A stretch of DNA of 20,000 bases. It comes from an uncultured virus (IMG/VR IMGVR_UViG_3300009529_000008) (taxonomy: Duplodnaviria; Heunggongvirae; Uroviricota; Caudoviricetes). Numbering within the stretch: position 1 is the first letter of the stretch; each line of letters starts with the position of its first letter. Positions 3,357 through 20,000 of the stretch are shown here, one piece after another. The position numbers and the translations under genes are program-made. The notes under the pieces are model-generated. The model was not told the origin of the DNA and searched no databases. It saw only the letters and a program-made list of their open reading frames with translations. Location: IMG/VR virus record IMGVR_UViG_3300009529_000008. The stretch is one strand, 5' to 3'.

Positions 3357-3692
3357 TTACTCACCACCTTTGCGTGAGAACATCATGAACAGCATCGGAA
3401 GTACGATTGCCATTATTCCCATCAGTGCGACTAACTTGTACATACTGAATCCCAATGCCACACCGCCTACTACATTGTAGTAAGATTCGTTCCACTTACT
3501 GTCGTTCGCTATCGTGATGACCTTATCAGTTTCACCTACGAGCATCATCATCACTGATCCAATTACCGCTGCCAGACCGAACAGGATTATCACGTACACT
3601 ATCGGATGATCCATGAAACCTCCGCCTATCTGTCCTTTCTTGTCCCTTTTTATCTTCCTCGCGTCTGTTAAAATTTCGTGTAGTTTACTCAT
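3357..3692 (-). CDS. Two-helix hydrophobic protein with basic class III-like leader; putative major capsid protein (spindle-virus type) or pilin
   Basis: Basic leader ending RDKKG|Q, two long hydrophobic helices separated by a short loop with sequons (NDS, NES), basic C-terminal tail, GGAGGTGA SD upstream. Confidence 0.65.
   Translation of the reverse strand: MSKLHEILTDARKIKRDKKGQIGGGFMDHPIVYVIILFGLAAVIGSVMMMLVGETDKVITIANDSKWNESYYNVVGGVALGFSMYKLVALMGIMAIVLPMLFMMFSRKGGE
3373..3461. repeat. 89-bp exact direct repeat, copy 1 (copy 2 at 4034-4122)
   Basis: Base-by-base identity from cgtgagaacatc to cccaatgccac; encodes the C-terminal helix of both paralogs. Confidence 0.95.
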
Positions 3693-4017: not shown

Positions 4018-4581
4018 CTACTCTTCCCTGCGTCGTGAGAACATCATGAACAGCATCGGAAGTACGATTGCCATTATTCCCATCAGTGCGACTAACTTGT
4101 ACATACTGAATCCCAATGCCACGCCACTGACGATATTGAGATAGCTTCCGTTCCACTTATTCTCATCGTATTTGTAGTCCACACCATAAGTTCCGTTAGT
4201 CCATGCAGTTATGTTCATCAATACATTATCACTTATATTATAGTGCGTGTCTTTCGTAAGTATCGTTCCTGGTGTACTAACATTGTACACACTTTCACTG
4301 TCGCCTTCTACATTTGCATGAGCAAGAGTATTTGTGTATGTATCTGAATTGTTTGTCCAGAACACCCATGACTCATTAGTTACTGAAGGTGTATCTAAGT
4401 TTGGTGCCACTACTTTATCTGTCTCGCCGACTATCATCATCATCACTGAGCCGATTATTGCTGCAAGCCCGAAGAGAATTATGACATACACAATGGGATG
4501 GTCTAAAAACCCCCCGCCTGCTTGTCCTCGCTTGTCTCTAATCACTCGAAAATTTGACTTATTTCTCTCTTTTCTAATCAA
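4018..4581 (-). CDS. Paralog of 3357..3692 with ~80-aa beta-rich glycosylated insertion between the helices; putative minor capsid/pilin
   Basis: Shares GGF.DHPIVYVIILFGLAA.IGSVMMM.VGETDKV and the C-terminal helix; leader ends RDKRG|Q. Start placed at TTG 4581 (GGAGTGA SD just upstream) rather than GTG 4638. Confidence 0.7.
   Translation of the reverse strand: MIRKERNKSNFRVIRDKRGQAGGGFLDHPIVYVIILFGLAAIIGSVMMMIVGETDKVVAPNLDTPSVTNESWVFWTNNSDTYTNTLAHANVEGDSESVYNVSTPGTILTKDTHYNISDNVLMNITAWTNGTYGVDYKYDENKWNGSYLNIVSGVALGFSMYKLVALMGIMAIVLPMLFMMFSRRREE
4034..4122. repeat. 89-bp exact direct repeat, copy 2
   Basis: Identical to 3373-3461 (offset 661 bp). Confidence 0.95.
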
Positions 4582-4661
4582 TGTTTCACTCCATAGCTTA
4601 AGATGCTCGGCTCGCTCTCTCGGCAAACAAAACACCACTAAAAAACTACATTATTTTCGTA

Positions 4662-4677
4662 CTATATAAAGCTTTCG
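4662..4677 (-). promoter_or_regulatory. Archaeal BRE-TATA promoter for the capsid/pilin-like genes
   Basis: - strand reads CGAAAGCTTTATATAG, nearly the same as the promoter at 12598-12612. Confidence 0.6.
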
Positions 4678-5179: not shown

Positions 5180-6431
5180 TCAGCCACGGGCAATGAGACC
5201 TCGTGCTTCAGCACGGGAAGGAATTGCTCTTTTCACCTCCTGTATTTTTCCTCTTGCATGTTCCAATAACTTCAACTTCTTGCAGTTTACTGACGCTCCT
5301 ATCTGGTTCCTCTCTATATCTCGCAAATCAAAGTAACCACTACTTCTTAATCCAAATATGAACCCTTTTACTTTTCCAAATAGCACTTTATCAAACCTCC
5401 TGAACCCGTTTACTTCTTTTACCGTGTTCCTCTTCCTTCTTCCACGCTTCAATAGATTGGCTTTAAACAAACTCCTGTTTTGCCTTCTTACTTGCTTTTC
5501 TTTGTAAAAAACATTTGCACGCACATGGTTACTGCTACCACCAGCAATTACAAACGCATCGTTAACATGGCTCTTTTCTAATCCCTGTTGAGTCCGCCCA
5601 AATTTTGTTATACTGCCATAAGTCCACCCGCAGTCTAACATATTCACAAGTTTCCACCTGATATTGTTCATAAACGTAGCAGCTCTTAACGGCTCTTTTG
5701 CCTTCTTTTGTATCCCTATATGCCCGAACTCCGCCGCGGTTTTGTTCCCCTTCTCTTGGTTGCATTTGTGACATGCAATTGTAAGATTAGAAACCCGGTC
5801 GCTACCGCCACGTGATTTCGGTACGATATGTTCTACTAGCACATTTTCTGTTCCACTTCTCCAGTAGATACTCTCTCACGGCATAGCCTCGTAACTCTCC
5901 TTGCTGGTATTCCATCCCGTTTATCTCCGGGTTCTGCATCTTCGCAGTATCAAAGCTCGCTACTTCTATTATCGTTTTCGTTATAGGTAGTATTCGCTTC
6001 AACCATTCTATCAACCGAATATGGCTTTGGAACTTATGTTCCAATGAGGGTGTTAACCAACCTTCTCCACGTCCTCGATTATCAAATCTCGCTTCACGAT
6101 GCCAGAGCCTATTTCTTCGCGTTCTACGATACATTCTTCTCTTATTCAACAGTCTTTTTATGTCGCTTCTCAATTCCAATTCGCCTGCTATTAATTCCCG
6201 GTTCGCTGTAATCGCACTATAACCGATATGCGAATAACCCGCGTCTATACCTAATATGATGTCCTGTCTGTTCTCTCCCGTTGCATATTTCAGTTGTATT
6301 GTGAATGGTTCTCGGCGAACTACTTTCGCTTTGCTTTCTTTTAGTATCTTGTTTGCTTTTCGCTGTGTCGTTGGCATCAGCGGCTCTCCACGCATATTCA
6401 CTACATAGACTACATTGTTCTGGACTCTCAA
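5180..6431 (-). pseudogene. iscB: IscB RNA-guided endonuclease, frameshifted by a deletion at the start of the HNH domain
   Basis: PLMP motif, RuvC-I GIDAG, bridge helix RRMYRRTRRNR and RuvC-II EVASFD in one frame; HNH ([12 protein letters not shown]...CHKCN) and RuvC-III (SHVNDA) in another. The break is at ~5837, where KCA joins VEHIVP without the usual YC...L segment. Start at TTG 6431 is inferred. Confidence 0.88.
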
Positions 6432-6673
6432 GTCAGAACTCCCTCTATGCTGGGAATGATGTTCCTCGGGATTGTTGGAAAGAGTTTTTGCATCGCGAGC
6501 ACCGCTCTTACCGCTTGGAGCTTTTAACCCTGCGACCACAGAGCCAGAAACTGGAACGGCATCTCTGGGTGTGATGCTACTTCCCAACTGCTGCGTATTT
6601 TTTTCTTGCATCCTTTACGCTCCCTAATCACGCAGAGACTTCATGCCTCGCCCTTCTGGACGGGGTGCGTGAC
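5181..6673 (-). mobile_element. Non-autonomous IS200/IS605-superfamily IscB (OMEGA) element, 1,493 bp
   Basis: Subterminal hairpins at 5200-5217 and 6646-6665. The - strand begins GTCACGCACCCC and is followed by ATGA at the far end. Removing it restores an ORF. No tnpA. Confidence 0.85.
6435..6673 (-). ncRNA. omegaRNA scaffold of the IscB element
   Basis: ~240-nt GC-richer, hairpin-forming region directly upstream of iscB, starting with the typical GTCA..CACCCC end; 3' boundary approximate. Confidence 0.75.
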
Positions 6674-6851
6674 TGAAGTAGGGAATAGTTGTATTCTCCC
6701 AATTAATATTATGCCTTGAAGTTATATTCCTTTGCTCCTCTAATTCCTCTTTCCATGTACCTTCTAAAAATAAACATGCAAACACTATCCATACAATTAT
6801 GGTAACAATGAACAATAGCACTTGAATTTGTTTTCGTCTTTTTTCGTTCAT
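6624..6851 (-). CDS. Small single-TM glycoprotein interrupted by the IscB element (native C-terminus at 5137-5180)
   Basis: The last 16 codons come from the element end. Joining 6674 to 5180 gives ...TIPYFNDSIMRNYTNKTNV*. Confidence 0.7.
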   Translation of the reverse strand: MNEKRRKQIQVLLFIVTIIVWIVFACLFLEGTWKEELEEQRNITSRHNINWENTTIPYFSHAPRPEGRGMKSLRD

Positions 6852-7462
6852 TTCTTTATTCTGCTCCCTCTTTGTAACACTATTCCGGCATCATTCAACC
6901 TTTTTTTAAGTGTTACATAACTCATACCCTGCATCTTTGCTATCTCTTTTAAGGTATAACCATCATTTATCGCCTTCTTAACTCTTTCTGTGTCTATTCT
7001 CACTTTTGGACGATGGCACAATTTTCCCTCTCGTTTCGCTCGTTTCATTCCTAATTCCGTTCTTACTTTGATAGTATCTATTTCAAATTCTGCTATGGAA
7101 CCTAATAGATTGAACAATAGCTTTCCTTCTGGCTTACTGGTATCCAAATGCTCGTGCATAGACAACAATTGCACATTATGCTCTTGGAGAAACTGTGTAG
7201 TAGTGTTTAAATCCATCAAACTCCTGCTCAGTCTATCAAATCGCCATACAAGTACTCCTTCAATACCGAAAGCATTTTTCTCAACGTCATTTAGCAATCT
7301 CTGAAAATCTTTTCTATCAGTGGTTAATCCACTTTCCTTATCCTTATATTCTGCCACTACTTCGTGGTTATACAATTCACAATACCTTTTTAACTCGTTT
7401 AACTGATCTTCGTTCGTTTTTTGTTCATCCGTGCTCACTCTTGCATAAATACCCACCTTCAT
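6848..7462 (-). CDS. Small serine recombinase (resolvase/invertase family) with C-terminal HTH
   Basis: YARVST catalytic motif, ESG...R..F, VWRFDRLSRS, DTS.P.GKL.F...GSIAEFE, RT..G...A...G; 204 aa. Confidence 0.93.
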   Translation of the reverse strand: MKVGIYARVSTDEQKTNEDQLNELKRYCELYNHEVVAEYKDKESGLTTDRKDFQRLLNDVEKNAFGIEGVLVWRFDRLSRSLMDLNTTTQFLQEHNVQLLSMHEHLDTSKPEGKLLFNLLGSIAEFEIDTIKVRTELGMKRAKREGKLCHRPKVRIDTERVKKAINDGYTLKEIAKMQGMSYVTLKKRLNDAGIVLQRGSRIKK

Positions 7463-9727: not shown

Positions 9728-10321
9728 TTAAACTTTTATGTTATCCCACCAGTTATATTCCTTATAAGAATGAAATTTAAGAACTTCGTATATTGTATCA
9801 TATAATCTGTCATAACTTCTATATCTTGCTTTACAATGTGTTATCTCCAAAGTAGTGCTTTCTATCGCAAAATCTCTTGTTTCGTTTTCGGATACCTTTA
9901 TATCCTTTACAACCACCCAAGCGTGCCGTTGCCCTCTCGATACTGCAATAAAGGCATGAAAACCCTCTTTTTCCAATGCCCATTCCAAATATGCACTCGC
10001 TTCGGAGCAGTCAAATGATTTTGTAGTAATTGGAGAAGATAACCATACGAGCTTCGTAGGATATTCAAAATTACCAATGAATCTGTTTAAATCACCAATT
10101 GTTTTATTTTCATAGCTTGAATTGTGAGTATAATAAGGATTCGGTACAGTACCTCTTTCTGATTGAATTGGTATTTGCCCGAAAAGAACGGATACAATAA
10201 CGATTGGAATAATAAAAACCAAAGCTACTCGTAGTACTTTAAGTTTCGATGGTTTATGAAATAATTCTTTTATACTCTTTTCCTCATAATGATAATCATA
10301 TACCTTTATTCTTATCTTCAT
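9728..10321 (-). CDS. Membrane-anchored transglutaminase-like (papain-fold) protein
   Basis: N-terminal TM; FDCSEAS (Cys), HAWVVV (His) and IEST (acidic) in catalytic-triad order. Confidence 0.7.
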   Translation of the reverse strand: MKIRIKVYDYHYEEKSIKELFHKPSKLKVLRVALVFIIPIVIVSVLFGQIPIQSERGTVPNPYYTHNSSYENKTIGDLNRFIGNFEYPTKLVWLSSPITTKSFDCSEASAYLEWALEKEGFHAFIAVSRGQRHAWVVVKDIKVSENETRDFAIESTTLEITHCKARYRSYDRLYDTIYEVLKFHSYKEYNWWDNIKV

Positions 10322-10325
10322 TTTT

Positions 10326-10451
10326 TCATCTCACAATTCTCAACAGGTAGTAAAGTGCAACTATGCACCCTACTAACAAACCCACATATACGTCTTTTAC
10401 TATTTCTTTTATCTTATCGATTTCTATTATTCGTTCTTTCTTTTCTTCCAT
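10326..10451 (-). CDS. Small 41-aa C-terminal TM protein
   Basis: MEEKKERIIEIDKIKEIVKDVYVGLLVGCIVALYYLLRIVR*; exactly fills the gap between neighbouring genes. Confidence 0.6.
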   Translation of the reverse strand: MEEKKERIIEIDKIKEIVKDVYVGLLVGCIVALYYLLRIVR

Positions 10452-10453
10452 TT

Positions 10454-11287
10454 TCACACCACCATTGAAAGTATATATACTGCAATCCCAGCGCCAACTA
10501 AAATCATCATTATCATTGTACCATAAGCTAACAAATCCCCCTGACGATTTAACATTTCTCGTTTTGTATTTGCCTCAATTGTTGCCTGCATGTTTGCTTC
10601 GCTCGCTGCAGTTTCAGGGTTTAACACAACATTTGCAATATTTTGAAATACCATCTCACCTTCGGTTATTTTTAATCCCTCACTACCATCTTCTTTACTA
10701 CCTGCAACTTCTTCTCGTATTTCTTTAATTCTATTCCATAAATCGGGATTTTCAACAACCAAGTAATTTCTATCATTTATAATTTCTTCTTCGGGACGCG
10801 CCAAGAACATATACGCTATCTCTCTTTTATTGCTATCCAAGCTCAGTTCTGGATACTGCTCCGCTAATTGATTTATTGCCCTAACTCCCATCGGATTTAT
10901 CGCACTGGGTAACGGCGGTACAAAGTGAACAATTGGTAAACCACGTACGGAATGTTCTACAGTTTTTGTCCTCTCTTCGGGAATGAATTTAAAGTCACCG
11001 CCTGCATACCAATTCGGTGGTTTCATATCCTTTTTCACTTTCTCTCGTTCACCTACTTTGAATCTACATCGCATATTAGCGTAGTGATCCATTATAACAT
11101 CCAAATTATTTTTACGTGCATCCCTGAATATCAATCCTTCAGGCGAAAACTTTTTAAATGACCACTGTTGATATACTGCATATGTACCCATTGCAGAAGC
11201 CATCATCATTGCTGCAATAGTAAGCCATACAAACCAATCTGGTACTACCATATAACCAGGTGGGATAGCTACAGCCGTTCTAATCAC
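10454..11287 (-). CDS. Hypothetical membrane protein (N- and C-terminal TM helices)
   Basis: 277 aa, GGGGGTGA SD, overlaps the upstream gene. Confidence 0.78.
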   Translation of the reverse strand: MIRTAVAIPPGYMVVPDWFVWLTIAAMMMASAMGTYAVYQQWSFKKFSPEGLIFRDARKNNLDVIMDHYANMRCRFKVGEREKVKKDMKPPNWYAGGDFKFIPEERTKTVEHSVRGLPIVHFVPPLPSAINPMGVRAINQLAEQYPELSLDSNKREIAYMFLARPEEEIINDRNYLVVENPDLWNRIKEIREEVAGSKEDGSEGLKITEGEMVFQNIANVVLNPETAASEANMQATIEANTKREMLNRQGDLLAYGTMIMMILVGAGIAVYILSMVV

Positions 11288-11564
11288 CCCCTTTCCACTT
11301 TTGAACTAACTTCTTCAAACTACCCATTTCTTTATATTGTTCTTGCATCTTCATAAACTCATCTTTTAGGACAAGATAATAAATAGCTAGATAACTAATA
11401 AAACTGAACGTAAGGATAATAAAATGTAATTGTAAAAAACCATTATCTCCGCCTTTTACTAAACTTAAAAACGAGTGCATTGCAATAATAGCCATACCAA
11501 AAAAAATAGCTATCCACACTTTAAGGCAATTTTTCTTCATTTTTTTTATTTTCCTGATAACCAA
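11280..11564 (-). CDS. Small two-TM hypothetical protein
   Basis: Two hydrophobic segments; overlaps both neighbours; start may be an internal ATG (MKKN). Confidence 0.65.
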   Translation of the reverse strand: MVIRKIKKMKKNCLKVWIAIFFGMAIIAMHSFLSLVKGGDNGFLQLHFIILTFSFISYLAIYYLVLKDEFMKMQEQYKEMGSLKKLVQKWKGGD

Positions 11565-12082
11565 TCAAATAAACCTTTTTTTCCACTTCGCGTTTCTTTT
11601 TCGCCTGGCATTCCACCTTGTTCTTGTCGTACTATCGTTGTTGCTAATAATCTTGCTCCATGTGCTCCCCTTCCTTTTCTTGTTTGTATCTCTGCACCAT
11701 ATCGTGCCATGCCCACATAAAAATTGTTTTTTTGATTCCTGTCAATTTTATAGCCAGTGTGCCAGAATCGTTGTTCATTGAGACTTTCCAATCCAATAAT
11801 TGATTTTCTATCTTCTTCGGTGGTGTAATAACCCAGTGCAACAGCACGTCCCGAAGCACTTGTAATTAGCGAAATAAGATTGGCTTTCATTGATTGAGAC
11901 ATCCGCGCATCGCCACCAATAAGTCCACATACGTACTCCATTTCACTAAATCGAGAAGCCTCTAATATCGTTTTGTATTGTTCAACCCTGATTTCATCAC
12001 TTAAATTAACGGGTGGTTCTTGACATTCATCCACTTCTTCCTGTACTTCTTCTTCTTCTTCCTGTACTTCTTCTTCACTCAT
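11546..12082 (-). CDS. Hypothetical protein with Glu-rich repetitive N-terminus
   Basis: 178-aa ORF; EEEVQEE repeated with a 21-bp period at the N-terminus. Confidence 0.75.
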   Translation of the reverse strand: MSEEEVQEEEEEVQEEVDECQEPPVNLSDEIRVEQYKTILEASRFSEMEYVCGLIGGDARMSQSMKANLISLITSASGRAVALGYYTTEEDRKSIIGLESLNEQRFWHTGYKIDRNQKNNFYVGMARYGAEIQTRKGRGAHGARLLATTIVRQEQGGMPGEKETRSGKKGLFDWLSGK

Positions 12083-12168
12083 TTTCTTTTTCTGTTAGTG
12101 ATGATAATTCCGCTTTCAACTTTCTCTTTCTCTCCAGTTTTTTCGCTTCTATTTGTTGCCTTTTCCTC

Positions 12169-12420
12169 TCATCTTATTGGTTTTATAAATGAAAAACGCT
12201 TTTTCCTCTCTATTTTTGTCTTCTCACAACTAACTTTACCAAAATATTCTTCCGTCAATTCAATAATTCTGTCTTTCACTACTCGCTTCTCTATATCCAA
12301 AATAGTGCTTTTTGCAGGTACGAGAGCAGAATCCTCAGCAAGCTTTGACATCAGTTGTTCTAACTCAGTATTCTTCTTCAACACTATTAAAACATCTTCA
12401 ACATAGTCTTTCAGTTGCAT
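12169..12420 (-). CDS. Hypothetical protein
   Basis: 83 aa, GAGGAGG SD, TGATG overlap with the upstream RHH gene. Confidence 0.7.
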   Translation of the reverse strand: MQLKDYVEDVLIVLKKNTELEQLMSKLAEDSALVPAKSTILDIEKRVVKDRIIELTEEYFGKVSCEKTKIERKKRFSFIKPIR

Positions 12421-12560
12421 CAGTTCTTTTCCTCCTCTTTTTTATTTTTTATTAAATCCTCCAATAAATTCCTCACTTTTTCTGAGAGGTTGAAGACTCT
12501 CGGCTGTTCTTGTATCCACTCATATTGCTCTTTCGTAACAGTAATTTGAACCGCTTTCAT
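12420..12560 (-). CDS. Ribbon-helix-helix (CopG-like) DNA-binding protein, 46 aa
   Basis: MKAVQITVTKEQYEWIQEQPRVFNLSEKVRNLLEDLI: alternating beta strand plus two helices with NLS..VR; GAGGTTGA SD; not in the ORF track. Confidence 0.75.
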   Translation of the reverse strand: MKAVQITVTKEQYEWIQEQPRVFNLSEKVRNLLEDLIKNKKEEEKN

Positions 12561-12597
12561 TATTGTCAACCTCGATAACAATATATAGTGATAAGGG

Positions 12598-12612
12598 TAT
12601 ATAAACCTTTCG
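12598..12612 (-). promoter_or_regulatory. BRE-TATA promoter of the leftward operon
   Basis: - strand CGAAAGGTTTATATA, ~38 nt upstream of the RHH start. Confidence 0.7.
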
Positions 12613-12642
12613 ATTATTTTCAGAAATAAACTATCCTTACAC

Positions 12643-12668
12643 CCGATAAACTTTAAACCTTTATATAG
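12643..12668 (+). promoter_or_regulatory. Divergent BRE-TATA promoter of the rightward operon
   Basis: CCGATAAACTTTAAACCTTTATATAG; TATA-like boxes 22-35 nt before ATG 12690 (leaderless spacing). Confidence 0.55.
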
Positions 12669-12689
12669 AATGAACTTTATTATATTACT

Positions 12690-12821
12690 ATGATAGAAGA
12701 TATAAGAACTAAGAAAATTGTAAGGGGAAATAAAATAAGAAAGCGAAAGCGATTGGAGAGAGAACTGGAAGAAGTTAATAAGGAAATTGAAGTATTAGAT
12801 AAAGAGATAGAAAGTAAATAA
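12690..12821 (+). CDS. 43-aa basic/coiled-coil protein
   Basis: MIEDIRTKKIVRGNKIRKRKRLERELEEVNKEIEVLDKEIESK*; ends 1 nt before the helicase ATG. Confidence 0.6.
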   Translation: MIEDIRTKKIVRGNKIRKRKRLERELEEVNKEIEVLDKEIESK

Positions 12822-12822
12822 A

Positions 12823-13968
12823 ATGGAAAAAATAGAACTCTTAGCATGGCAAACAGAAGCATTTAAAAACTGGATAAAGAACAAAGGGCAGGGATATGTC
12901 GAAGCACCGACCGGTAGCGGTAAAACTTTTGTAGGTTTGAAACTAATAGAAAAAGAAAAACTATCTCCTTTTCTTATTGTCGTACCAACAATCGAACTGT
13001 TATCACAATGGAAAAACCATATAAAAAAGTATTATCCCGATACAGTAATAACCAGTATAGGCGACGGTGAGAAGTATAATGGTTATACCAATACTCTCGA
13101 CCCCTGTTCTAAAAGAGTTACGATAGCAATAATAAATTCTATACGCAAACACAAACTTAATGTAAAAACATTAATATTAGACGAAATTCATCATTACTCT
13201 TCTCTCGCACCTGTAAATTATAAAATATGGGATAATATTAAATGTAAATACATTCTTGGTTTGAGTGCTACCCCTATCCCGGAACGAATAAGTAAAGAAG
13301 ATGTAGGCTGGAATATCCCACAAGTATATCAATATTCACTACAACAAGCCTATAACGATGGTACTTTACTAAAACCAGAAATTATAAAGAAAGGGGTACA
13401 TTTAGAAGAAAATGAACAAAATGAATATGACATTTTAACTGATAAAATAAAGTCCAAAATGGGTACGTTTGAAAGTTTCAATAATGCACCATTTTATTTC
13501 AAGGGTTGGGTATTTGATAGGAATGAAATTTTATTTGGAAGTAATAGAAAGATAGATACAGTAATAGACATTCTTACCCATAGCAATTTTAAGAAGGCTA
13601 TAATTTTCACAGAGCGAATTGATACTGCTCAAAGAATATCACGAGAAATAAGTGGTTTGGGAATTTTTGAAGAATACTGTCTTCACAGCGGAATAAAAAA
13701 GAAGATGCGTAAAGAAGCAGTAAACAAATTCATCGAAACAACTTTACCATGTATTATCACGACCGCACACCTTTTCGAGGAAGGGATGGATGTCCCGGAC
13801 ATAGATATGATTATATTACATTCATTCAATAATACGAAACGGGAATCACTGCAACGCATTGGACGTTCTTTGCATAATAAAACCGTTACTCCTAAAATTT
13901 ATATTTTGTATTACGAAAATACAAAGGAGAATTATGCAGCAAAAAAGATTGAGAGGTTGTTTCTATGA
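12823..13968 (+). CDS. Superfamily 2 DExH helicase (XPB/Rad25-like)
   Basis: Q motif WQ, motif I APTGSGKT, Ia VVPTIEL, II DEIH, III SAT, V EGMDVP, VI QRIGR. Confidence 0.92.
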   Translation: MEKIELLAWQTEAFKNWIKNKGQGYVEAPTGSGKTFVGLKLIEKEKLSPFLIVVPTIELLSQWKNHIKKYYPDTVITSIGDGEKYNGYTNTLDPCSKRVTIAIINSIRKHKLNVKTLILDEIHHYSSLAPVNYKIWDNIKCKYILGLSATPIPERISKEDVGWNIPQVYQYSLQQAYNDGTLLKPEIIKKGVHLEENEQNEYDILTDKIKSKMGTFESFNNAPFYFKGWVFDRNEILFGSNRKIDTVIDILTHSNFKKAIIFTERIDTAQRISREISGLGIFEEYCLHSGIKKKMRKEAVNKFIETTLPCIITTAHLFEEGMDVPDIDMIILHSFNNTKRESLQRIGRSLHNKTVTPKIYILYYENTKENYAAKKIERLFL

Positions 13969-14117
13969 AACTAACCCAAAAAGAAGTATCAAATATAATT
14001 TATGATGCGTGCAAAAATTGGGACATTAATTGGATGACGAGATATTTTGCTGATGAAGTAGCAAAAGAAATTAGGAGAAGAGAGAATAAAAAATGGATAA
14101 AGAAAAGGAAAAACTGA
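13965..14117 (+). CDS. Hypothetical 50-aa protein
   Basis: MKLTQKEVSNIIYDACKNW...; GAGGT SD and ATGA overlap with the helicase stop. Confidence 0.55.
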   Translation: MKLTQKEVSNIIYDACKNWDINWMTRYFADEVAKEIRRRENKKWIKKRKN

Positions 14118-14407
14118 AGGAAGCATATAAGATATATTCAGAAAGAGTAACACAACTTTGGAACAAACTCATAGAGAAGTATGGTTTTGATGAACAAACA
14201 GCACTAACAATTATAGCAAATTTTTGGTATGAACCTGATGAAGCAGAGAAATTCGAGGAAGAATGGATTGATAGTAGTGATGAAATAAGAAATGAAATAG
14301 AGAAGCAGTTTAATGTGTCTATTGAACACGAAGAAGAGATGATTACAGTAAGAAATGAAAATTTTGTGTATGATGGAGTAATGATTATTGAAGAAGAGGA
14401 ATATTAA
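14093..14407 (+). CDS. Acidic hypothetical protein
   Basis: 104-aa ORF in the operon. Confidence 0.7.
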   Translation: MDKEKEKLKEAYKIYSERVTQLWNKLIEKYGFDEQTALTIIANFWYEPDEAEKFEEEWIDSSDEIRNEIEKQFNVSIEHEEEMITVRNENFVYDGVMIIEEEEY

Positions 14408-14410
14408 GAA

Positions 14411-14686
14411 ATGAAAGTAAAAAATAGTTATAAATTTTTGTCTTGTATCTTCATTTTAGTAGTCAGTTTTTCTTTAAGTATTTATACTATAGGATTAGGT
14501 CAAGAGAAACTTATAGAAGATTTAAAAGATTGTGAACCAGGAATATATAATGTGATTCCAATTAATATTTGGTATATGTTACTATCTTTTGCTATTATGT
14601 TAGTAGGTGTTTTTCTAATAGCAATTGTTTTGGGCTTTTTAAAAGGAGGAGAAAAATCAATTGAATGTTTCTACAGACCAAAATAA
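14411..14686 (+). CDS. Small two-TM hypothetical protein
   Basis: 91 aa with two hydrophobic segments; starts 3 nt after the upstream stop. Confidence 0.65.
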   Translation: MKVKNSYKFLSCIFILVVSFSLSIYTIGLGQEKLIEDLKDCEPGIYNVIPINIWYMLLSFAIMLVGVFLIAIVLGFLKGGEKSIECFYRPK

Positions 14687-14730
14687 TAAAGATTTATATG
14701 GAATGTTTTTATTTATAGATATATAGAAAA

Positions 14731-14862
14731 ATGAAAACAAAAGTAATAAGCATAAGGGAAGAGCAAGACGAATGGTTGCAGAAACATAGGAGTATTAACC
14801 TATCTGGATTTGTGCAGGAGAAATTAGATATATTAATAAGAAAAATGGAGAAGAAAGAATGA
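14731..14862 (+). CDS. Ribbon-helix-helix DNA-binding protein, 43 aa
   Basis: MKTKVISIREEQDEWLQKHRSINLSGFVQEKLDILI; similar to 12420..12560 (EQ.EW.Q....NLS..V); TATA-like AAAGATTTATATG ~32 nt upstream. Confidence 0.75.
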   Translation: MKTKVISIREEQDEWLQKHRSINLSGFVQEKLDILIRKMEKKE

Positions 14863-14959
14863 GTGAAATATATAAAGTAGAGATAAAAGGAACAAGACCT
14901 TTGTTGATGAACTCATGTAGACACATGATAGAAAAATTTAGGAAATAGGATTTTATCAA

Positions 14960-15280
14960 ATGACTACTCATAAAAGTACATGGAAGCAATTAGAAAGAGA
15001 TATTTGTAAGGAGTTCGGAGGAAAAAGAACACCATTAAGTGGAAATCGAAGTGGGCATAATACTTCTTCTGATTGTATTGCTGTAAACCCAGAGTTTTTA
15101 AACTTTTATATTGAAATTAAGCTCAGAGCATCTTATTTACACCACAGAATTTTTAATGAAATTAAAAAAAAAGCAAAAGACGAAAAGAAAGTGCCTTTGT
15201 TTATTACGCGAGAGAAAAACAAAAAACAAAAATTGATTATTTTGAGAATGGAAGACTTTTTGGAGTTGATAAAGAAATGA
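14960..15280 (+). CDS. PD-(D/E)XK nuclease, Holliday-junction-resolvase-like
   Basis: WKQLER...R.PLSG...SD......IEIK motif order; 106 aa. Confidence 0.75.
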   Translation: MTTHKSTWKQLERDICKEFGGKRTPLSGNRSGHNTSSDCIAVNPEFLNFYIEIKLRASYLHHRIFNEIKKKAKDEKKVPLFITREKNKKQKLIILRMEDFLELIKK

Positions 15281-16215
15281 AAATAAATGTTCTAAGTTTA
15301 TTCGATGGAATGTCCTGCGGGCAAATAGCACTTAGAAGAGCGGGGATAGAATATGATAATTATTTCGCTTCGGAAATAGATAAATATGCAATTCAAATCA
15401 CACAAAAGAACTATCCAGATACTATACAATTGGGTGATATTCATAATATTGAAATAGAAAAATTACCAAAAATTAAGTTATTGCTCGGTGGTAGTCCCTG
15501 TCAATCATTATCAATAGCAAAAAGACAAAAAGAAAGTGGACTGAAAAAAGGACAATCTATTTTATTTTGGGATTATATGAGGATTTTGAATACAATAAAA
15601 CCGAGATATTTCTTATTTGAAAATGTAGCATCCATGAAAAAAACAGATAGAGATTTAATAAGTAATAGTTTAGGTGTTGAACCTATTTTAATAAATTCTG
15701 CTCTTCTAACGGCACAACAACGAAAAAGATATTATTGGACAAATATTGAAGAAGTAGAACAACCAAAAGATAAAGAAATATACTTAAAAGATATACTCGA
15801 AAAGGGTTACACAGAAAAGTTAAAAAGTTATTGCATCACTGCAACATATTCACGAGCTTGTCCACAAAACTATTTCTTTCATGAAGAAAGACAACTTATA
15901 TTTAATAAACCTGTTAGAGTAGGTACTATCGGTAAAGGTGGACAGGCAGAAAGAATTTATTATATCAGTGGTAAAAGTATATGTTTAAATGCAAATGGTG
16001 GTGGAATGGGTGCAAAAACAGGACTATATGAAATTAAAGAACATATTAGAAGACTAACACCTATTGAATGTGAACGATTACAAACAGTTCCTGACAATTA
16101 TACAAGTTTAAGAAAAGAAGGTAAAGAATTAATGAGTGATACACAACGATATAAAATGCTCGGAAATGGTTTTACGGTTGATGTAATAGTACATATTCTA
16201 AAGTATTTAAAATAG
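15277..16215 (+). CDS. DNA (cytosine-5)-methyltransferase
   Basis: Motif I LSLFDG, IV GGSPCQ, VI FENV, VIII QQRKR, IX RRLTP.ECERLQ, X LGNG. Confidence 0.93.
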   Translation: MKINVLSLFDGMSCGQIALRRAGIEYDNYFASEIDKYAIQITQKNYPDTIQLGDIHNIEIEKLPKIKLLLGGSPCQSLSIAKRQKESGLKKGQSILFWDYMRILNTIKPRYFLFENVASMKKTDRDLISNSLGVEPILINSALLTAQQRKRYYWTNIEEVEQPKDKEIYLKDILEKGYTEKLKSYCITATYSRACPQNYFFHEERQLIFNKPVRVGTIGKGGQAERIYYISGKSICLNANGGGMGAKTGLYEIKEHIRRLTPIECERLQTVPDNYTSLRKEGKELMSDTQRYKMLGNGFTVDVIVHILKYLK

Positions 16216-16283
16216 AATATTTCTGATATTTCTTTTAAAAATGAATTTAATTAATTAGCTAATCATGTTATTCTTTCGTCAAT

Positions 16284-16350
16284 GCTTCGCTTCGCTTCGC
16301 ATTATTCTATTCCTAATGAGAGTGGAAAAAAGAGCGAAGCGAAGCGTAGC
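16284..16350. repeat. 17-bp inverted repeat built from GCTTC/GAAGC pentamers
   Basis: GCTTCGCTTCGCTTCGC (16284-16300) and GCGAAGCGAAGCGTAGC (16334-16350); 1 mismatch, 33-nt spacer. Confidence 0.9.
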
Positions 16351-16429
16351 GATATAAAGAATTAACAGGATTAACTATACCAAAAAGTAGATTCAACAAA
16401 AGTAGATTCTACACGTCAATAAATGATTT

Positions 16430-16513
16430 TTAGATTTATAGTTTTTCTATAAATCTAACTTGTATTGTTTATCTTTAGTATAGGTTAGTTTTATAGTTTT
16501 TCTATAAACCTAA
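16430..16513. repeat. Two copies of a 29-bp palindrome (12-5-12), 55 bp apart
   Basis: TTAGATTTATAG-TTTTT-CTATAAATCTAA at 16430-16458 (perfect arms); TTAGTTTTATAG-TTTTT-CTATAAACCTAA at 16485-16513. Confidence 0.9.
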
Positions 16514-17182
16514 AACTATCTTTATATCTGATAGCTTACTCTTACTCAGTGCAAATCTATACAGTTTCTTACCCTTACTGTATCTGAATGTTTTTAACAA
16601 TCCAGTCTTTTCGAGATTATTTAGGTGTGTTCTCATATATTGCTCCTTAATACCTATTATCTGTGCAATCTCTTTTACTGTTGTACCTTCTTTTTCTATC
16701 AAAGCTTCCATTATATCAACGAAATATTTATCTCTCACACTTTCTCTAACTATTGTTCCTTCTTCTGAGATTGAAGTATGTTTTTTTGGGAAGAACCATT
16801 TTTTTATATCTCTCTCAATTTGTATTGCTCCTGATATTGTAATAGTTGGGTTATAGTCTTCACTGAACCAAAAATTCATTAATCTCTCTCCAGTTGTTCT
16901 ATCGAAGGGATAATATATTTTTAATATATCTTCACTCTCTCTGCATTGTATTATAGTTTTACTTTTTTCACTTATATTATCCCAGTGATCTCTTTTAAGT
17001 TTTCTTTCTTTAAAGGGATTAGTTTTTCTTTTAGGATTATTATTTTTATCTACGAAAGTATCCATCTCAGGAAGTGGTTCATCATGTAATACTGTGACAG
17101 ACGCTTTGACACCATCTACTTTTATTTTACTTATTAAGTTCCATTTTCTTAATTCGTCTATATTAATCTTTTCGTTGCCCAT
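16502..17182 (-). CDS. Protein with C-terminal winged-helix domain; candidate replication initiator or regulator
   Basis: IMEAL...TTVKEIAQIIGIKEQYMRTHLNNLEKTGLLKT....GKKLYR is an ArsR/MarR-type wHTH pattern; N-terminal ~150 aa not recognised. Confidence 0.7.
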   Translation of the reverse strand: MGNEKINIDELRKWNLISKIKVDGVKASVTVLHDEPLPEMDTFVDKNNNPKRKTNPFKERKLKRDHWDNISEKSKTIIQCRESEDILKIYYPFDRTTGERLMNFWFSEDYNPTITISGAIQIERDIKKWFFPKKHTSISEEGTIVRESVRDKYFVDIMEALIEKEGTTVKEIAQIIGIKEQYMRTHLNNLEKTGLLKTFRYSKGKKLYRFALSKSKLSDIKIVLGL

Positions 17183-17333
17183 TTTTCATTTCTTCTCTTT
17201 TATGTTCAATTTCTTCCATTATCAGATTTGTTACCCATGTATCAATGTTTGGTAACAAATCTACTTCTTTCAGGTCATCAAATACTTTTCGAGGCATTGT
17301 AATAAATAGTCTCTTTATGCTTTTATTATACAT
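17163..17333 (-). CDS. Small RHH-like protein
   Basis: MYNKSIKRLFITMPRKVFDDLK...IDTWVTNLIMEEI; AGGAGA SD favours an ATG near 17333; TATA-like TTTATATAG at ~17424-17432. Confidence 0.55.
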   Translation of the reverse strand: MYNKSIKRLFITMPRKVFDDLKEVDLLPNIDTWVTNLIMEEIEHKREEMKNGQRKD

Positions 17334-17570
17334 TTCATTTCGTCTCTCCTTTTTCTGGGCGTTGTTTTTATTCCCGCACCGAATCACTTACTTGTAGCTA
17401 CTGATAATATGTTTAATTTTATTCTATATAAATAAGTTGGAATATTGTTAGAATTTCTAATACACAACAAAACAAAAATAAGTATCCTATATATCCTTAC
17501 AAAAAATACATATTTTTGCAGTGTCTCTTAAAGTTAGTTTCGCTTATTGAAAGAATATTTGAACTGAACG

Positions 17571-17587
17571 AAACTTATTTATACCCC
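17571..17587 (+). promoter_or_regulatory. BRE-TATA promoter upstream of the structured non-coding region
   Basis: GAAACTTATTTATACCC; expected start site ~17608-17612; no credible + strand ORF until 18319. Confidence 0.55.
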
Positions 17588-17609
17588 TCAAAACAATGCC
17601 TACTATAAT

Positions 17610-18297
17610 GAGGATGGGTGGGGGAAACACTTTATCTGACCTATAAACGGGGCATATAAAATATGCTTATACGGATTTTCTCTGAGACCTAAATAGGTAT
17701 CTCATACGGAGAAACTTCCAAAAGAGTATTTATGCTTATGGTTGCGGATGCCTTTCTCGCCGCGCTCTACACAGAGCTGCACAAAAGGAGAAGGACTGAC
17801 ACGAAAAGTGTTCGTAGAAACAAAAAAACAAATAATGAACCCGAATAAGGGGGATATGTTTTTTGGAGAAGCATGGCTCTAAATGAGCTCATTTTAGTAA
17901 TTAATCTATTATCTGTGTATTTTGCAAACGTAAACTTCGCGTTAAGGAAAACAATTAAACTGAAAAACAAAGGAATTTGAGCTCAGGAGAAACCATGCTT
18001 CTTCATAATGTTTTTTAAAGTTTGTGGACTGCATAAAGAAGACAGGAAGAAAGATGTGCACAAATAAATGGATTATGATAGGATTGTATTTGATTAATTG
18101 ACTTCTTCCTGCTTTCGTGCATAAGTTCATAAGTTTTTAAATTCCAAGTAAGTGCGTAAATTCGCAAACCTCACTATCCTCACGTGTGATTTGTGGAGCG
18201 TTAAGCTTGTTTGGATATATTTTGGGAGACTTGGTGAAGAGCAAAGACGAATGTGAGTGGGTTCAATTCCCACTTCTCCTTTGCAGGTACAATCTGC
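17610..18297 (+). ncRNA. Candidate large structured ncRNA (~690 nt) with tRNA-like 3' domain
   Basis: Near-continuous nested helices with many G-U pairs, e.g. 17867-17876/17993-18002, 17884-17891/17978-17985, 18043-18051/18103-18111, 18143-18153/18205-18215; T-arm GTGGG-TTCAATT-CCCAC at 18257-18273. Confidence 0.65.
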
Positions 18298-18318
18298 TAA
18301 TAGGATAAGTGAGGACGA

Positions 18319-18762
18319 ATGGAATTAGAAGAGATGAATCGGGTATTAGAGGAGGTGTGGAAAAATCCTTCTCTAAGTGATGTCGAAAAAGAACTAGAGG
18401 AACAGCCTAAACAGAGGAAGAAAAGATTTTTCTTTCTTGGTGAGCGAAAAGTGATACCAGAAAATCCAGTAATATTTGAGAACGGAATATTTTTTGTAGA
18501 GCGAGCTTCTGAGTTTATGGTAATAAAACCAAAAACCGTGAAGGAGTATTTACAAATGGTTAGAGGAACAAAACGAATGACAAAGGTTGAGAAGGTAGCT
18601 AAAGAGATATTGATACCATTATCTCAAACCAATGAAAATCCAATAAGGTGGTTTGAGCAGAAGTATGTAGAATCAAATGGGGAGCGAAATATGCAAGGAC
18701 GATTTATTCGAGAGATATGGAAATACAAAAAGGAGGTATTTGGTGGGGCGATGTTAGGATGA
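18319..18762 (+). CDS. Hypothetical protein
   Basis: 147-aa ORF with GTGAGGA SD. Confidence 0.7.
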   Translation: MELEEMNRVLEEVWKNPSLSDVEKELEEQPKQRKKRFFFLGERKVIPENPVIFENGIFFVERASEFMVIKPKTVKEYLQMVRGTKRMTKVEKVAKEILIPLSQTNENPIRWFEQKYVESNGERNMQGRFIREIWKYKKEVFGGAMLG

Positions 18763-18855
18763 TAAGTAACTATTCAGAATATTGGTATTGTGAAGGTTTG
18801 TCGTACCCGGAAATTGTTGAGAGGATAAATAGAGGAAAGGAGGCGAATAAATAAG

Positions 18856-18996
18856 ATGTGTTCGTGTAAGAATCCAAAATTCTCAGGGAATATGTGTTAT
18901 GGAACATGGTCAGGAAGAGGGTGTGAATCTGTCCATAAAGACGGATTAAATTGGATAGATAATGAAACTACGAAAATTCTTTGGAGAGGTGAGTGA
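18856..18996 (+). CDS. Small Cys-rich (possible Zn-binding) protein, 46 aa
   Basis: MCSCKNPKFSGNMCYGTWSGRGCESVH...; GGAGG upstream; ends 3 nt before the next ATG. Confidence 0.5.
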   Translation: MCSCKNPKFSGNMCYGTWSGRGCESVHKDGLNWIDNETTKILWRGE

Positions 18997-18999
18997 GTA

Positions 19000-19293
19000 A
19001 TGATAAATAACAATGGTTCAATGAAAGACCTAAAAATCTTTGTTCAGAGAAATGGTGTCCAAAAACGAATCAGTACATGGAAATTCTTCCAGAATTTAGG
19101 TTTCGCTTTCTGGATGAATGGTTCAGACAAAAAAGAATTTGAGTATAAGCAAGCAATGCAAATATGCAAGCGAGTTTTTAACGTAGCAAAAACTGACCAG
19201 AGTATCCAGCTTAGAGGTACGATGATTGATGAATTGGAGAAAGAAGATAAAGTTGCGAAACTATTCCAAGGGGAGAAGATAGTTTTGGGGTGA
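19000..19293 (+). CDS. Hypothetical protein
   Basis: 97-aa ORF with GAGGTGA SD. Confidence 0.7.
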   Translation: MINNNGSMKDLKIFVQRNGVQKRISTWKFFQNLGFAFWMNGSDKKEFEYKQAMQICKRVFNVAKTDQSIQLRGTMIDELEKEDKVAKLFQGEKIVLG

Positions 19294-19299
19294 GTGGAA

Positions 19300-19497
19300 A
19301 TGAAACAAATATTAGAAATAAACTTAACCGGAGCAGATGGCAATATATTTGCTATCGTTGGTAGAGCAGCAGAACTTCTCAAACAAAATGGTAAGAGAGA
19401 TGAAGCAAATGAGATGAAAAATAGAGTGATTAAACAAAAGAGTTATGAGGATGCTCTGAAAGTAGTTAGTGAGTATGTAGAGATAAGAGAGATATAG
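19300..19497 (+). CDS. Small conserved phage/MGE hypothetical protein (G.DGN.F family)
   Basis: LTGADGNIFAIVGRA...LK..G...A......SYEDAL pattern, which I recognise from phage proteins; GGGGTGA SD favours ATG 19300. Confidence 0.7.
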   Translation: MKQILEINLTGADGNIFAIVGRAAELLKQNGKRDEANEMKNRVIKQKSYEDALKVVSEYVEIREI

Positions 19498-19785
19498 GAG
19501 GGGATAATATGCCACACAAAGGATGGTTTTATAAAGTAGATGGATTAACAGAAGAATTAAAAAAGTGGAATTGATAAGAGAGTAAAAGCAATGGAGTATA
19601 TGTAAATACTAATAAGCGAGGCAGGATGATAGAATGACCAAAAAAAAAAAAAAAAAAAATCATGCTGGTAAAGACAAACAAAAAGAGAAAGAATGTTCAT
19701 GAAGCACATAAGACAAACAAAAAGAAAAAGATATTATTGAAACCAATAGATTATAGTAAAAGAGTCACAAGATGGGGTTAATTTG

Positions 19786-20000
19786 ATGAATAAAAAAGCT
19801 TTTATTAATCCGATTGGGATAATTCTTGCGTATTTATTATTTTTAGCTCTGTTTTTTTTAAAGTTTGGGGAGATATTAAATAATTTAGCACAGCAAGGAA
19901 TAGCATTAAACGGATTGGTAGGGATTGAAGCTTTTTTATTATCTAATATTAACTTATGGGTTTTTTTGTTTAGTCTTATAACAGTAATTGCAGGGGTTTA
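19786..20000 (+). CDS. Two-TM hydrophobic protein with class III-like leader (MNKKA|F); 3'-truncated
   Basis: MNKKAFINPIGIILAYLLFLALFFLKF...EAFLLSNINLWVFLFSLITVIAGV, open to the window end; GGGGT SD-like sequence upstream. Confidence 0.6.
   Translation, partial: MNKKAFINPIGIILAYLLFLALFFLKFGEILNNLAQQGIALNGLVGIEAFLLSNINLWVFLFSLITVIAGV

Follow-up and report, generated by a model that had tools for sequence, protein, structure and literature searches.

A composite non-coding RNA region with BHB-shaped hairpins and a tRNA-like module ahead of a conserved gene in a probable archaeal virus

The gap, its promoter and the gene that follows

The window, a stretch of 20,000 nucleotides from an uncultured virus (IMG/VR record IMGVR_UViG_3300009529_000008), contains a 930-nt gap (17388-18318) flanked by divergent genes at 17163-17387 (-) and 18319-18762 (+). 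This gap is AT-rich (36% GC). An earlier sequence-only reading saw no credible ORF here, in agreement with our finding that the longest + strand ORF of the gap is of 46 aa with a TTG start. The longest ORFs of the - strand (67 and 62 aa) both fall within parts that are missing from the relatives; with no ORF conserved, a protein-coding gap is ruled out.

The same reading had placed a BRE-TATA box at the head of the region: a BRE/TATA-type promoter word, CGAAACTTATTTATA, is indeed present at 17569-17583 (+) and is retained in the relatives, with the form CGAAAnT..T.(T/A)ATAC common to the window, L002 and L006. The L006 word has an identical second occurrence elsewhere in the L006 record. The word CGAAANNTWTWTATA has three copies in the window, at 4663-4677(-), 12598-12612(-) and 17569-17583(+), where 0.02 are expected for this pattern, which was made post hoc. 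Sequence conservation among the relatives starts ~26 nt downstream of CGAAACTTATTTATA, at ~17608. The archaeal-type genes and promoters bear out the earlier description of an archaeal virus-like element, and the element is probably an archaeal virus; the Terminase_6N and HK97 capsid Pfam models found nothing in the 80.6-kb record G001.

The gene at 18319-18762 (+) follows the RNA in all cases and codes for a 147-aa protein with 43 homologues. It opens a block of genes, which in relatives extends as far as an RFC small subunit of archaeal type, scoring 209-214 bits in L002 and L006. The protein has no match in Pfam, PHROG or NCBIfam and no Atlas lead, and its AF2 model (mean pLDDT 74) has no PDB fold match at E<=0.001. 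This gene is preceded by homologous non-coding blocks in L001, L002, L004 and L006, and the comparisons below rest on four to five homologues, of which two are partial and two (L001 and L002) are close to each other. No close relative was recovered by megablast or blastn among phages and plasmids, by single-protein searches of IMG/VR, by exact words of the window in viral and metagenome contigs, or by a protein profile in GTDB genomes, and none of the sequencing runs listed for the sequence is an RNA run. Gapped-motif matches in GTDB bacterial MAGs (L008-L010) are chance matches: the core model R1 is silent at the motif sites.

Architecture of the RNA region

The hairpins described in the sequence-only reading are where it placed them (12/12 quoted strand pairs). 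Folding of 17571-18297 is better than in dinucleotide shuffles: the + strand gives -194.0 kcal/mol versus -165.4 +/- 6.1 in 20 shuffles (z -4.72, 0/20 as good), and the - strand -168.6 versus -143.0 +/- 4.3 (z -5.93). As both strands fold better than shuffles, the folding of one sequence denotes an excess of self-complementarity without naming the strand. In a survey of 50 consecutive 200-nt segments over 10001-20000, coding segments mostly have z within about +/-2 and 17801-18000 reaches -4.6 (+) and -3.5 (-); the only other segments with z below -3 are in 16201-16600 and 18401-18600 (+). The strand is addressed by the mismatches, many of which had been described as G-U compatible: among 346 aligned cells 49 are G-U and 7 are A-C, and hence pairing is better on one strand, with 93.6% of cells pairing on + versus 81.5% on -. 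The G-U excess, the paired base changes and the promoter word together point to a + strand RNA. The proposal of a promoter-driven, non-coding, structured RNA on this strand is thus upheld, with helices that covary in the relatives: on this comparative evidence, the gap is the site of a real, conserved, non-coding folded RNA.

What did not survive is its description as a single ornate RNA of ~690 nt folded end to end: two of the supposed long-range domains, at 17865-18141 (277 nt), are missing in L001 and in a contig from run X2 (the X2 contig). The region is instead a composite of a ~255-nt core, three hairpins of bulge-helix-bulge (BHB) geometry, the shape by which the archaeal splicing endonuclease recognises tRNA-intron splice sites, and a tRNA-derived module. 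The earlier reading was right about the structured RNA; it left unnoticed the BHB shape of the three hairpins, the tRNA-derived 3' end and the leader position.

The core (block A; 17608-17862, +) is a multi-helix RNA of ~255 nt with no Rfam match. On the + strand it comprises a G-U-rich hairpin (17616-17623/17630-17637), a hairpin at 17652-17666, a two-tier hairpin with the conserved CUCAUACGGAG (17673-17719), a hairpin at 17724-17737, a junction helix (17742-17747/17812-17817), a further helix (17751-17757/17787-17793) and hairpins at 17798-17811 and 17840-17842/17849-17851. The core region is 71% identical to that of L002 over 390 nt (blastn), and core homologues folded individually reproduce the same two-tier hairpin. 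In the alignment A7 of five sequences 88.9% of cells pair, versus 44-55% when slid, with both-sided changes in 11/29 pairs of the core helices, a result matched by 0/500 shuffles that ignore kinship. The model R1 finds one copy per relative (115-167 bits), the core RNA being single copy per genome. Judged from these comparisons, the core is a new family or fold, without tRNA likeness.

Downstream of the core are the hairpins of BHB shape, a layout which we define, following the descriptions in PMC4090602 and PMC7714728, by a central 4-bp helix, 3-nt bulges on opposite strands, and an outer and an inner helix. Hairpin I1 (17864-18005, +) has the canonical geometry, conserved in 3/3 carriers, with its outer helix at 17864-17876/17993-18005, the central 4 bp at 17877-17880/17986-17989, AAA bulges at 17881-17883 and 17990-17992, and the inner helix at 17884-17889/17980-17985. 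Its excised part would be ~17883-17991 (109 nt), with cuts at the positions that we take to be the rule for a BHB. The window, L002 and L006 carry it, whereas L001, the X2 contig and L004 lack it; in the alignment A4 97.1% of cells pair, versus 48-54% slid, with both-sided changes in 7/34 pairs. Being single copy in the window and in G001, it is ruled out as a mobile inverted-repeat element.

Hairpin I2 (18014-18141, +), picked up by a loose BHB scan and with an MFE fold z of -3.3, has a relaxed BHB-like shape, which departs from the layout by one extra unpaired base: its central GCAU/GUGC is at 18031-18034/18117-18120 and its bulges are AAA and AUA. Taken previously for one of the long-range domains, it is private to the window and not a shared element: no counterpart exists in L001, L002, L006 or the X2 contig, and at its position L002 has a 75-aa ORF and L006 has nothing.

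The third hairpin, block B (18143-18215, +), has canonical BHB geometry and is kept in 4/4 sequences (window, L001, L002 and L006). Its outer helix (18143-18153/18205-18215), central 4 bp (18154-18157/18198-18201), bulges (AAA at 18158-18160 and UAA at 18202-18204) and inner helix (18161-18166/18192-18197) enclose a predicted excised part at ~18160-18203, of 44 nt in the window and 42-45 nt overall, in which two CCUCAC words (18169-18174 and 18178-18183) complement the word that binds the ribosome ahead of ORF 18319. In the alignment A8 97% of cells pair, versus 23-46% slid, with both-sided changes in 5/25 pairs; this pairing was reached by 3/500 shuffles, which ignore kinship. By MFE folding, block B takes the same 3-4-3 layout in the window, L006 and L002. 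A strict BHB scan recovers I1 in all three of its carriers and block B in L001, L002 and L006; the window copy of block B fails it through too many G-U pairs.

Patterns of this kind are common by chance: with loose criteria (4/3-bp helices) the + strand of the window has 76 in its 20 kb, and with 6/5-bp helices six shuffles have 2-6 per 20 kb. Hence, the BHB case rests on conserved geometry and covariation across few sequences, namely on the layout of I1 (3/3) and block B (4/4), whose bulges and central helix are free of indels. In L004 the core and a tRNA-like module occur with no BHB hairpin, and BHB elements are therefore not obligatory.

The module at 18224-18280 (+) is derived from the acceptor and T-arm of a tRNA: it has 57 nt and no anticodon arm. 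We defined such tRNA-like elements by a 5-bp stem, a 7-nt UUCRAYU loop, a closing pair of the G53-C61 type and a 6-7-bp acceptor-like stem. The window module has a T-arm GUGGG-UUCAAUU-CCCAC (18257-18273, +), with the 5-bp stem and the 7-nt UUCRAYU loop, stacked on an acceptor-like stem GGGAGA/UCUCCU (18224-18229/18275-18280, +). One to three modules with a UUCRAYU loop are found in every relative with upstream sequence, eight in six loci: seven come from a scan, and that of L001, with a 4-bp stem, was found by eye. The L006 counterpart aligns end-to-end to the tRNA model (positions 1-71; 22.7 bits, E 1e-3), under the 29-bit cut-off, and the T-stem and acceptor show paired changes between the window and L006. 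The window module is a weak one, its stem of 6 bp including a G-U pair and the better 7-bp acceptor of L006 being broken; it gives no ARAGORN call and no Rfam match at E<=10.

Directly after the module stands a small conserved hairpin, GCAGGU-ACA-AUCUGC (18283-18297, +), which has the form GCAGCUAUAAGCUGC in L001 and L002 and GCAGCUAUAAGCUGU in L006. It is followed by the ribosome-binding region GGAUAAGUGAGGACGA with the AUG of ORF 18319-18762 (18303-18321, +), conserved in L001, L002 and L006. The best partner for an SD duplex in the upstream RNA is inside block B in three of four sequences (window, L006 and L001); compared with shuffles, the duplex is not better in L002 (65/200) and is marginal in L001 (17/200). 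In nested folds the accessibility of the ribosome site rises after splicing from 0.33 to 0.44 in the window, with no change in L006, L001 and L002; this test thus favours an anti-SD switch in only 1/4 sequences, and the switch was rejected.

Known identities, proposed processing and rival explanations

No GOLLD, ROOL, OLE, HEARO, RNase P or group I-II intron match was found in the RNA region: a search of 17300-18400 against Rfam at E<=10 gave six chance-level matches (best E 1.1), with the same outcome for L006 2300-3050. The sole cmscan match of the window at gathering thresholds is a HEARO at 6454-6673, outside the RNA region. ARAGORN at default settings calls no tRNA gene in the window or the related loci, and taking a full cloverleaf with an anticodon arm, and at least 29 bits with RF00005 or an ARAGORN call, as the mark of a tRNA gene, the best score is the 22.7 bits of the L006 module. 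Low-threshold intron-tRNA calls are poorly paired. A tRNA with a giant intron (ARAGORN -i: 17847-18282 with a 350-nt intron; L002 1512-2166) was rejected because its 5' acceptor strand belongs to a covarying local hairpin (CCC/GGG in the window, GCC/GGC in L006 and L004), and because no 5' strand fits in L006 and the D-arm and anticodon part are missing from L001 and the X2 contig. A tmRNA, with its tRNA-like domain and tag reading frame, is ruled out too: only local T-arm matches arise, at 13-18 bits versus cut-offs of 47-70, and ARAGORN -m finds none.

The BHB-type hairpins and the tRNA look-alike suggest that host tRNA-processing enzymes probably cut this RNA. With moderate confidence we propose that the gap encodes a leader or precursor RNA processed by the tRNA-maturation enzymes of the host, which would release circular introns and the core RNA. 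The leader would be the non-coding 5' part (~0.7 kb) of a viral transcript that starts at ~17608 and runs into ORF 18319, its order being the ~255-nt core, one to three BHB hairpins and the tRNA-derived acceptor/T-arm module. The splicing endonuclease and an RtcB-type ligase would excise pieces of ~109, 86 and 44 nt as RNA circles, and cleavage of the RNase P / tRNase Z type at the tRNA-like module would release the folded core from the mRNA that encodes the 147-aa protein. The CCUCAC words of the 44-nt piece complement the ribosome-binding site, so that processing may also tune translation of the 147-aa gene, this being the weakest step of the proposal. A more far-reaching version, which we put forward tentatively, is that of an archaeal virus family in which one leader would be cut by the host tRNA-maturation line (splicing endonuclease, RtcB ligase, RNase P, tRNase Z) into a stable, folded core RNA, up to three circles (one of them with anti-SD-like CCUCAC words) and a translatable mRNA of the gene that opens the replication block.

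Several other explanations would account for parts of these data. The RNA could be a free-standing, trans-acting ornate RNA of the GOLLD/ROOL kind, with the core, alone or with the hairpins, as its product (perhaps a particle that self-assembles or binds protein) and the tRNA-like modules as mere neighbours, like the tRNA islands of GOLLD and ROOL: the core is a large, multi-branched RNA whose conservation includes covariation, and the setting is viral, with one to three adjoining tRNA-like modules. We consider this unlikely, given that no GOLLD, ROOL or other Rfam model matches at E<=10, that the conserved core has just ~255 nt, and that the RNA is found only ahead of one gene family with no terminator-like break before the gene. 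That the RNA always stands in one place and direction ahead of one gene speaks for a purely cis-acting mRNA leader that would set the stability or translation of the 147-aa and replication genes, neither processed nor using its BHB and tRNA shapes, which would be incidental or inherited; so do the complementarity of the block B loop to the ribosome-binding word and, in L003 and L004, the sequestration of the GGAGG word in a local hairpin instead. The region is, however, unusually large for an operator, and entire hairpins that come and go as modules are unusual in one too; such a leader, for which accessibility is negative in 3/4 sequences and the exact 3-4-3 geometry in two separate hairpins goes unexplained, is distinctly unlikely.

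That the region is evolutionary debris, left by viral tRNA genes with introns whose cluster is decaying and functionless today, is very improbable: compensatory changes preserve helices across lineages whose neighbouring protein is 41-72% identical, the promoter is conserved and the 255-nt core has no tRNA likeness. Yet T-arms, acceptor stems and BHB hairpins are all parts of tRNA genes, I1 would keep an anticodon-like 7-nt loop (CUCUAAA), and the modules vary in number and are degenerate. Also very improbable in our judgement is a DNA-level element, such as an origin of replication or a regulatory region, with palindromes that work as DNA. It would suit a long, AT-rich gap that separates divergent operons and heads a block of replication genes, in which both strands fold better than shuffles; it is at odds with the better pairing on one strand, the covarying helices, the conserved promoter pointing into the region and the want of a repeated origin-type box, the gap having no direct-repeat family except a 19-nt chance-level member at 18093-18111.

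Comparison with known systems

PMC4090602 and PMC7714728 describe BHB splice sites in cellular tRNAs and rRNAs, the crenarchaeal cbf5 mRNA and one Haloferax 5' UTR; our full-text literature search found no description of them in an archaeal virus. If the more far-reaching version holds, no BHB introns or regulatory circular RNAs encoded by a virus would precede those described here, and archaea would offer a parallel to the unexplained association of GOLLD and ROOL with tRNAs in phages. A viral leader with conserved BHB hairpins, a tRNA look-alike and a new core would be a concrete case, open to testing, in which a virus uses the RNA-processing enzymes of archaea to make circular and linear small RNAs, and would provide a structural approach to the question of why large viral RNAs adjoin tRNA-like genes. 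The cleavage predictions can be checked in vitro with recombinant enzymes, with no need of a virus culture.

The closest case in a protein-gene leader is Haloferax volcanii HVO_1309, for whose 5' UTR Schwarz et al. (2020; PMC7714728) report a 46-nt BHB intron, by circRNA-seq and in vitro cleavage, and relate that its removal is thought to matter for expression. Both are short BHB-bounded introns, of 46 nt there and a predicted 42-45 nt in block B. The Haloferax intron is cellular, single and experimental, whereas the candidates here are viral, up to three in a row, accompanied by a 255-nt core and a tRNA-like module, and predicted from sequence.

The hBHBh' layout is shared with archaeal intron-containing pre-tRNAs and pre-rRNA processing stems, as these are presented in PMC4090602 and PMC7714728. 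Archaeal pre-tRNAs also contain the acceptor/T-arm part that forms our module; in contrast to them, no complete tRNA assembles here and the hairpins are outside any tRNA body. Use of tRNA shapes as 3' ends or punctuation within longer transcripts is known from the small RNAs of the phage T4 tRNA region, the Haloferax tRNA-like element before 5S rRNA and MALAT1-mascRNA, all of them experimentally mapped. Our module resembles these in being tRNA-shaped, set in a longer transcript and potentially used by RNase P and/or tRNase Z; it differs in being deduced from sequence and, in the window, minimal (57 nt).

GOLLD and ROOL, as portrayed in bioRxiv 10.1101/2024.12.08.627333 and PMC5737381, are RNAs of phages that frequently lie close to tRNA islands, and the GOLLD linker sometimes includes tRNAs. 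The earlier suggestion of an archaeal-virus counterpart stands as an analogy, in that both are large, covarying viral RNAs beside or linked to tRNA or tRNA-like genes, and fails as a match to their sequences or models. The present RNA further differs in its smaller conserved core, its archaeal-type promoter and splice-site signals, and its fixed leader position before one gene family.

A structured RNA between divergent genes

A 930-nt gap (17388-18318) separates two divergent genes at 17163-17387 (-) and 18319-18762 (+), the latter coding for a 147-aa protein with 43 homologues. The comparison set comprises six loci carrying such a homologue: L001-L005, which are JGI metagenome contigs, and L006, an 80.6-kb IMG/VR record. 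The region upstream of the gene is complete in L002 and L006 and partial in L001 and L004; L003 begins within a tRNA-like module and L005 is without upstream sequence. A further relative, the X2 contig from a sequencing run, was aligned to the window. Identity across the non-coding blocks is 71-86%, matching the neighbouring gene at 77%.

The observation of a sequence-only reading, which had flagged a stretch of this gap as a candidate RNA without a credible ORF, holds up. No conserved ORF was found in the gap region or its relatives, and all the hairpin strings it had quoted are in place. Against dinucleotide-shuffled controls the stretch is more stable on both strands: the + strand folds at -194 kcal/mol versus -165.4 +/- 6.1 (20 shuffles; z -4.7) and the - strand at -168.6 versus -143.0 +/- 4.3 (z -5.9). 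Across fifty consecutive 200-nt segments spanning 10001-20000, the majority have z within about +/-2 and 17801-18000 reaches -4.6 (+) and -3.5 (-); the only other values below -3 are in a gap of convergent genes (16201-16600) and at 18401-18600 (+). The self-complementarity of the stretch is real. The excess is present on both strands, and single-sequence folding can neither separate RNA from DNA nor assign a strand.

Covariation among homologues is found in all three alignments. For the 3' half of the core, the conserved multi-helix part of the RNA, 88.9% of cells are paired in five sequences versus 44-55% with slid partners, and 11 of 29 pairs are changed on both sides (0/500 shuffles as good). 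The corresponding values for block B, a hairpin 3' of the core, are 97% versus 23-46% in four sequences and 5 of 25 pairs (3/500 shuffles as good), and for hairpin I1 97.1% versus 48-54% in three sequences and 7 of 34 pairs, all these controls coming from a small sample in whose statistics the relatedness of the sequences remains. One helix position shows a compensatory series in three lineages: CCUUUCU/GGAGAAG, CUCUCUU/AAGAGAG and CUUCCUC/GAGGAAG. The combined alignments hold 49 G-U cells versus 7 A-C cells, as a result of which pairing is 93.6% on the + strand versus 81.5% on the - strand; the proposed G-U compatibility of mismatches on the + strand is thereby borne out. Independently folded homologues give the same two-tier hairpin as 17673-17719. 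A covariance model of the core recovers exactly one copy each in the window, L001, L002, L004 and L006 (115-167 bits), and no further copies in 63 kb of loci and the 80.6-kb record. From these results we conclude that the gap very probably encodes a structured + strand RNA. It is uncatalogued, with no Rfam family matching the flagged region at E<=10, and ARAGORN reported no tRNA or tmRNA in the window.

Modular layout and tRNA-type signals

The alignments of relatives reveal a modular layout: promoter, core, I1, I2, block B, tRNA-like modules and 3' end. The BRE-TATA box noticed earlier corresponds to the word CGAAANNTWTWTATA at 17569-17583 (+), conserved among relatives, and sequence conservation begins ~26 nt past it, at UGAGGAYGGGUGGGG. 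The same word precedes two other transcription units, at 4663-4677 (-) and 12598-12612 (-), giving three matches versus 0.02 expected in the window for a pattern derived post hoc. In L006 the promoter word has an identical 21-nt copy 14.5 kb away in the same record. The core occupies 17608-17862 (+); L004 is a distant relative, its protein being 41% identical, yet it carries the 3' half. Hairpin I1 (17864-18005, +) is found in the window, L002 and L006 and is absent from L001, L004 and the X2 contig, the last of which lacks 277 nt between 17864 and 18142. Hairpin I2 (18014-18141, +) is private to the window; in its place L002 has a 75-aa Lys/Arg-rich ORF (1645-1872, +) with a strong ribosome-binding site, AAAGGAGG, and no family match. 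Block B (18143-18215, +) is shared by the window, L001, L002 and L006. One to three tRNA-like modules per relative and a small hairpin (18283-18297, +) precede the ribosome-binding word and AUG.

In their consensus structures, I1 and block B have one unusual layout in common, that of the bulge-helix-bulge (BHB), an archaeal splicing-endonuclease signal: on the 5' side a long outer helix, 4 bp, a 3-nt bulge and the inner helix, and on the 3' side the inner helix, the partners of those 4 bp, another 3-nt bulge and the outer helix. This holds without indels in 3/3 sequences of I1 and 4/4 of block B, and I2 has a relaxed form. Pattern scans with 4/3-bp flanks yield 76 occurrences on the window + strand, the shape being common by chance in a single sequence, and those with 6/5-bp flanks yield 4 on the + and 12 on the - strand versus 2-6 per shuffle; hence, the case rests on conserved geometry and covariation in two separate hairpins. 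BHB motifs are cleaved after the second bulge base; cuts at that position here would release pieces of about 109, 86 and 44 nt. Splicing of I1 at its BHB (17877-17883 with 17990-17992) would leave a hairpin with a 7-nt loop, CUCUAAA, of anticodon-loop form with CUA and with no surrounding tRNA body.

In every relative having upstream sequence, one or more T-arms with the loop UUCRAYU stack on an acceptor-like stem directly before the gene. The L006 module aligns end to end with the tRNA model at 22.7 bits (cut-off 29; E 1e-3); its 7-bp acceptor is perfect and it includes a D-arm, with no anticodon arm. The window version is minimal at 57 nt (stem 18224-18229/18275-18280, T-arm 18257-18273, +), and paired changes distinguish both its stems from those of L006. 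An ARAGORN candidate tRNA with a 350-nt intron was rejected because its 5' strand lies in a covarying local hairpin and is partnerless in L006. Additional tRNA-like modules, which contain long hairpins, occur at L002 2244-2332, L002 2362-2521 and L003 1-130. The third L002 module and that of L003 have in common, besides the motifs GAGGUUUGUAGG and GAAAGGU, a 7-bp hairpin that covaries and has the loop YUGGCUA, and may form a separate small RNA family.

The element and its host

The window (GC 28-44%) is a gene-dense mobile element coding for a helicase, RusA-like resolvase, C5 methylase, DnaA-like ATPase, prepilin/FlaK-like peptidase and LamG-type structural proteins, besides an IscB/HEARO and serine recombinase unit. 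A few genes past the RNA, relatives encode an archaeal-type RFC small subunit (209-214 bits), and the L006 record has direct terminal repeats. The phage and plasmid collections searched held nothing similar to the window, and Terminase_6N and HK97 capsid gave no match in the L006 record. We take the window to be a likely archaeal virus or virus-like element. L006 3845-4963 (+) encodes a protein that has multi-haem-like matches and, at its C-terminus, matches Heimdall-CTERM at 21.2 bits (cut-off 24), which hints weakly at an Asgard archaeon as host.

The sole Rfam family above threshold in the window, HEARO/omega RNA (6454-6673, 101.8 bits), lies outside the flagged region. Beside it the IscB gene falls into two ORFs that overlap, RRXRR (5802-6611) and HNH (5180-5842), and a serine resolvase (6848-7462) is nearby; together, 5180-7462 (-) resembles an IS607/IscB-type unit within the virus-like element, perhaps with a frameshift. 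Direct-repeat pairs at 3373-3647 and 4034-4539 (131 nt at 89%, 128 nt at 76%) identify the neighbouring genes 3357-3692 and 4018-4638 as paralogues. The gap between convergent genes at 16216-16513, with fold z of -6.0 and -4.3, probably serves as a terminator region in both directions. It contains a hairpin rich in GC, GCTTCGCTTCGCTTCGC/GCGAAGCGAAGCGTAGC (16284-16350), and a pair of nearly identical 29-nt palindromes (16430-16458 and 16485-16513).

A proposed leader or precursor RNA

Presence and absence of modules makes 277 of the ~690 nt dispensable in some lineages. Thus, while the RNA of the sequence-only reading stands as real, its description as one giant ornate molecule does not: the region is better described as an apparent leader or precursor RNA combining a new conserved core with tRNA-type processing signals.

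A possible link to the 147-aa gene lies in the loop of the predicted block B intron, whose CCUCAC words are complementary to the ribosome-binding word GUGAGG. The best duplex of the ribosome site with the whole upstream RNA falls in this loop in 3/4 sequences (shuffles as good: window 1/200, L006 0/200, L001 17/200); in L002 it lies outside, with 65/200 shuffles as good. With the intron removed, nested-fold accessibility of the site goes from 0.33 to 0.44 in the window and is unchanged in L001, L002 and L006. Such pairing is a weak lead. The predicted RNA 5' end, (A/G)UGAGGA (17609-17615 in the window), repeats the ribosome-binding word GUGAGGA (18309-18315), as it does in L002 and L006, so the loop could pair with either.

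Searches of the freely accessible literature returned no paper describing a BHB intron in an archaeal virus. Closest to the proposed viral leader among known cases is one from Haloferax, where a 46-nt BHB intron within a 192-nt 5' UTR is reported to be cleaved in vitro and to occur in circular form (PMC7714728). Another is the association of phage GOLLD and ROOL RNAs with tRNAs (PMC5737381; bioRxiv 10.1101/2024.12.08.627333), a likeness by analogy only.
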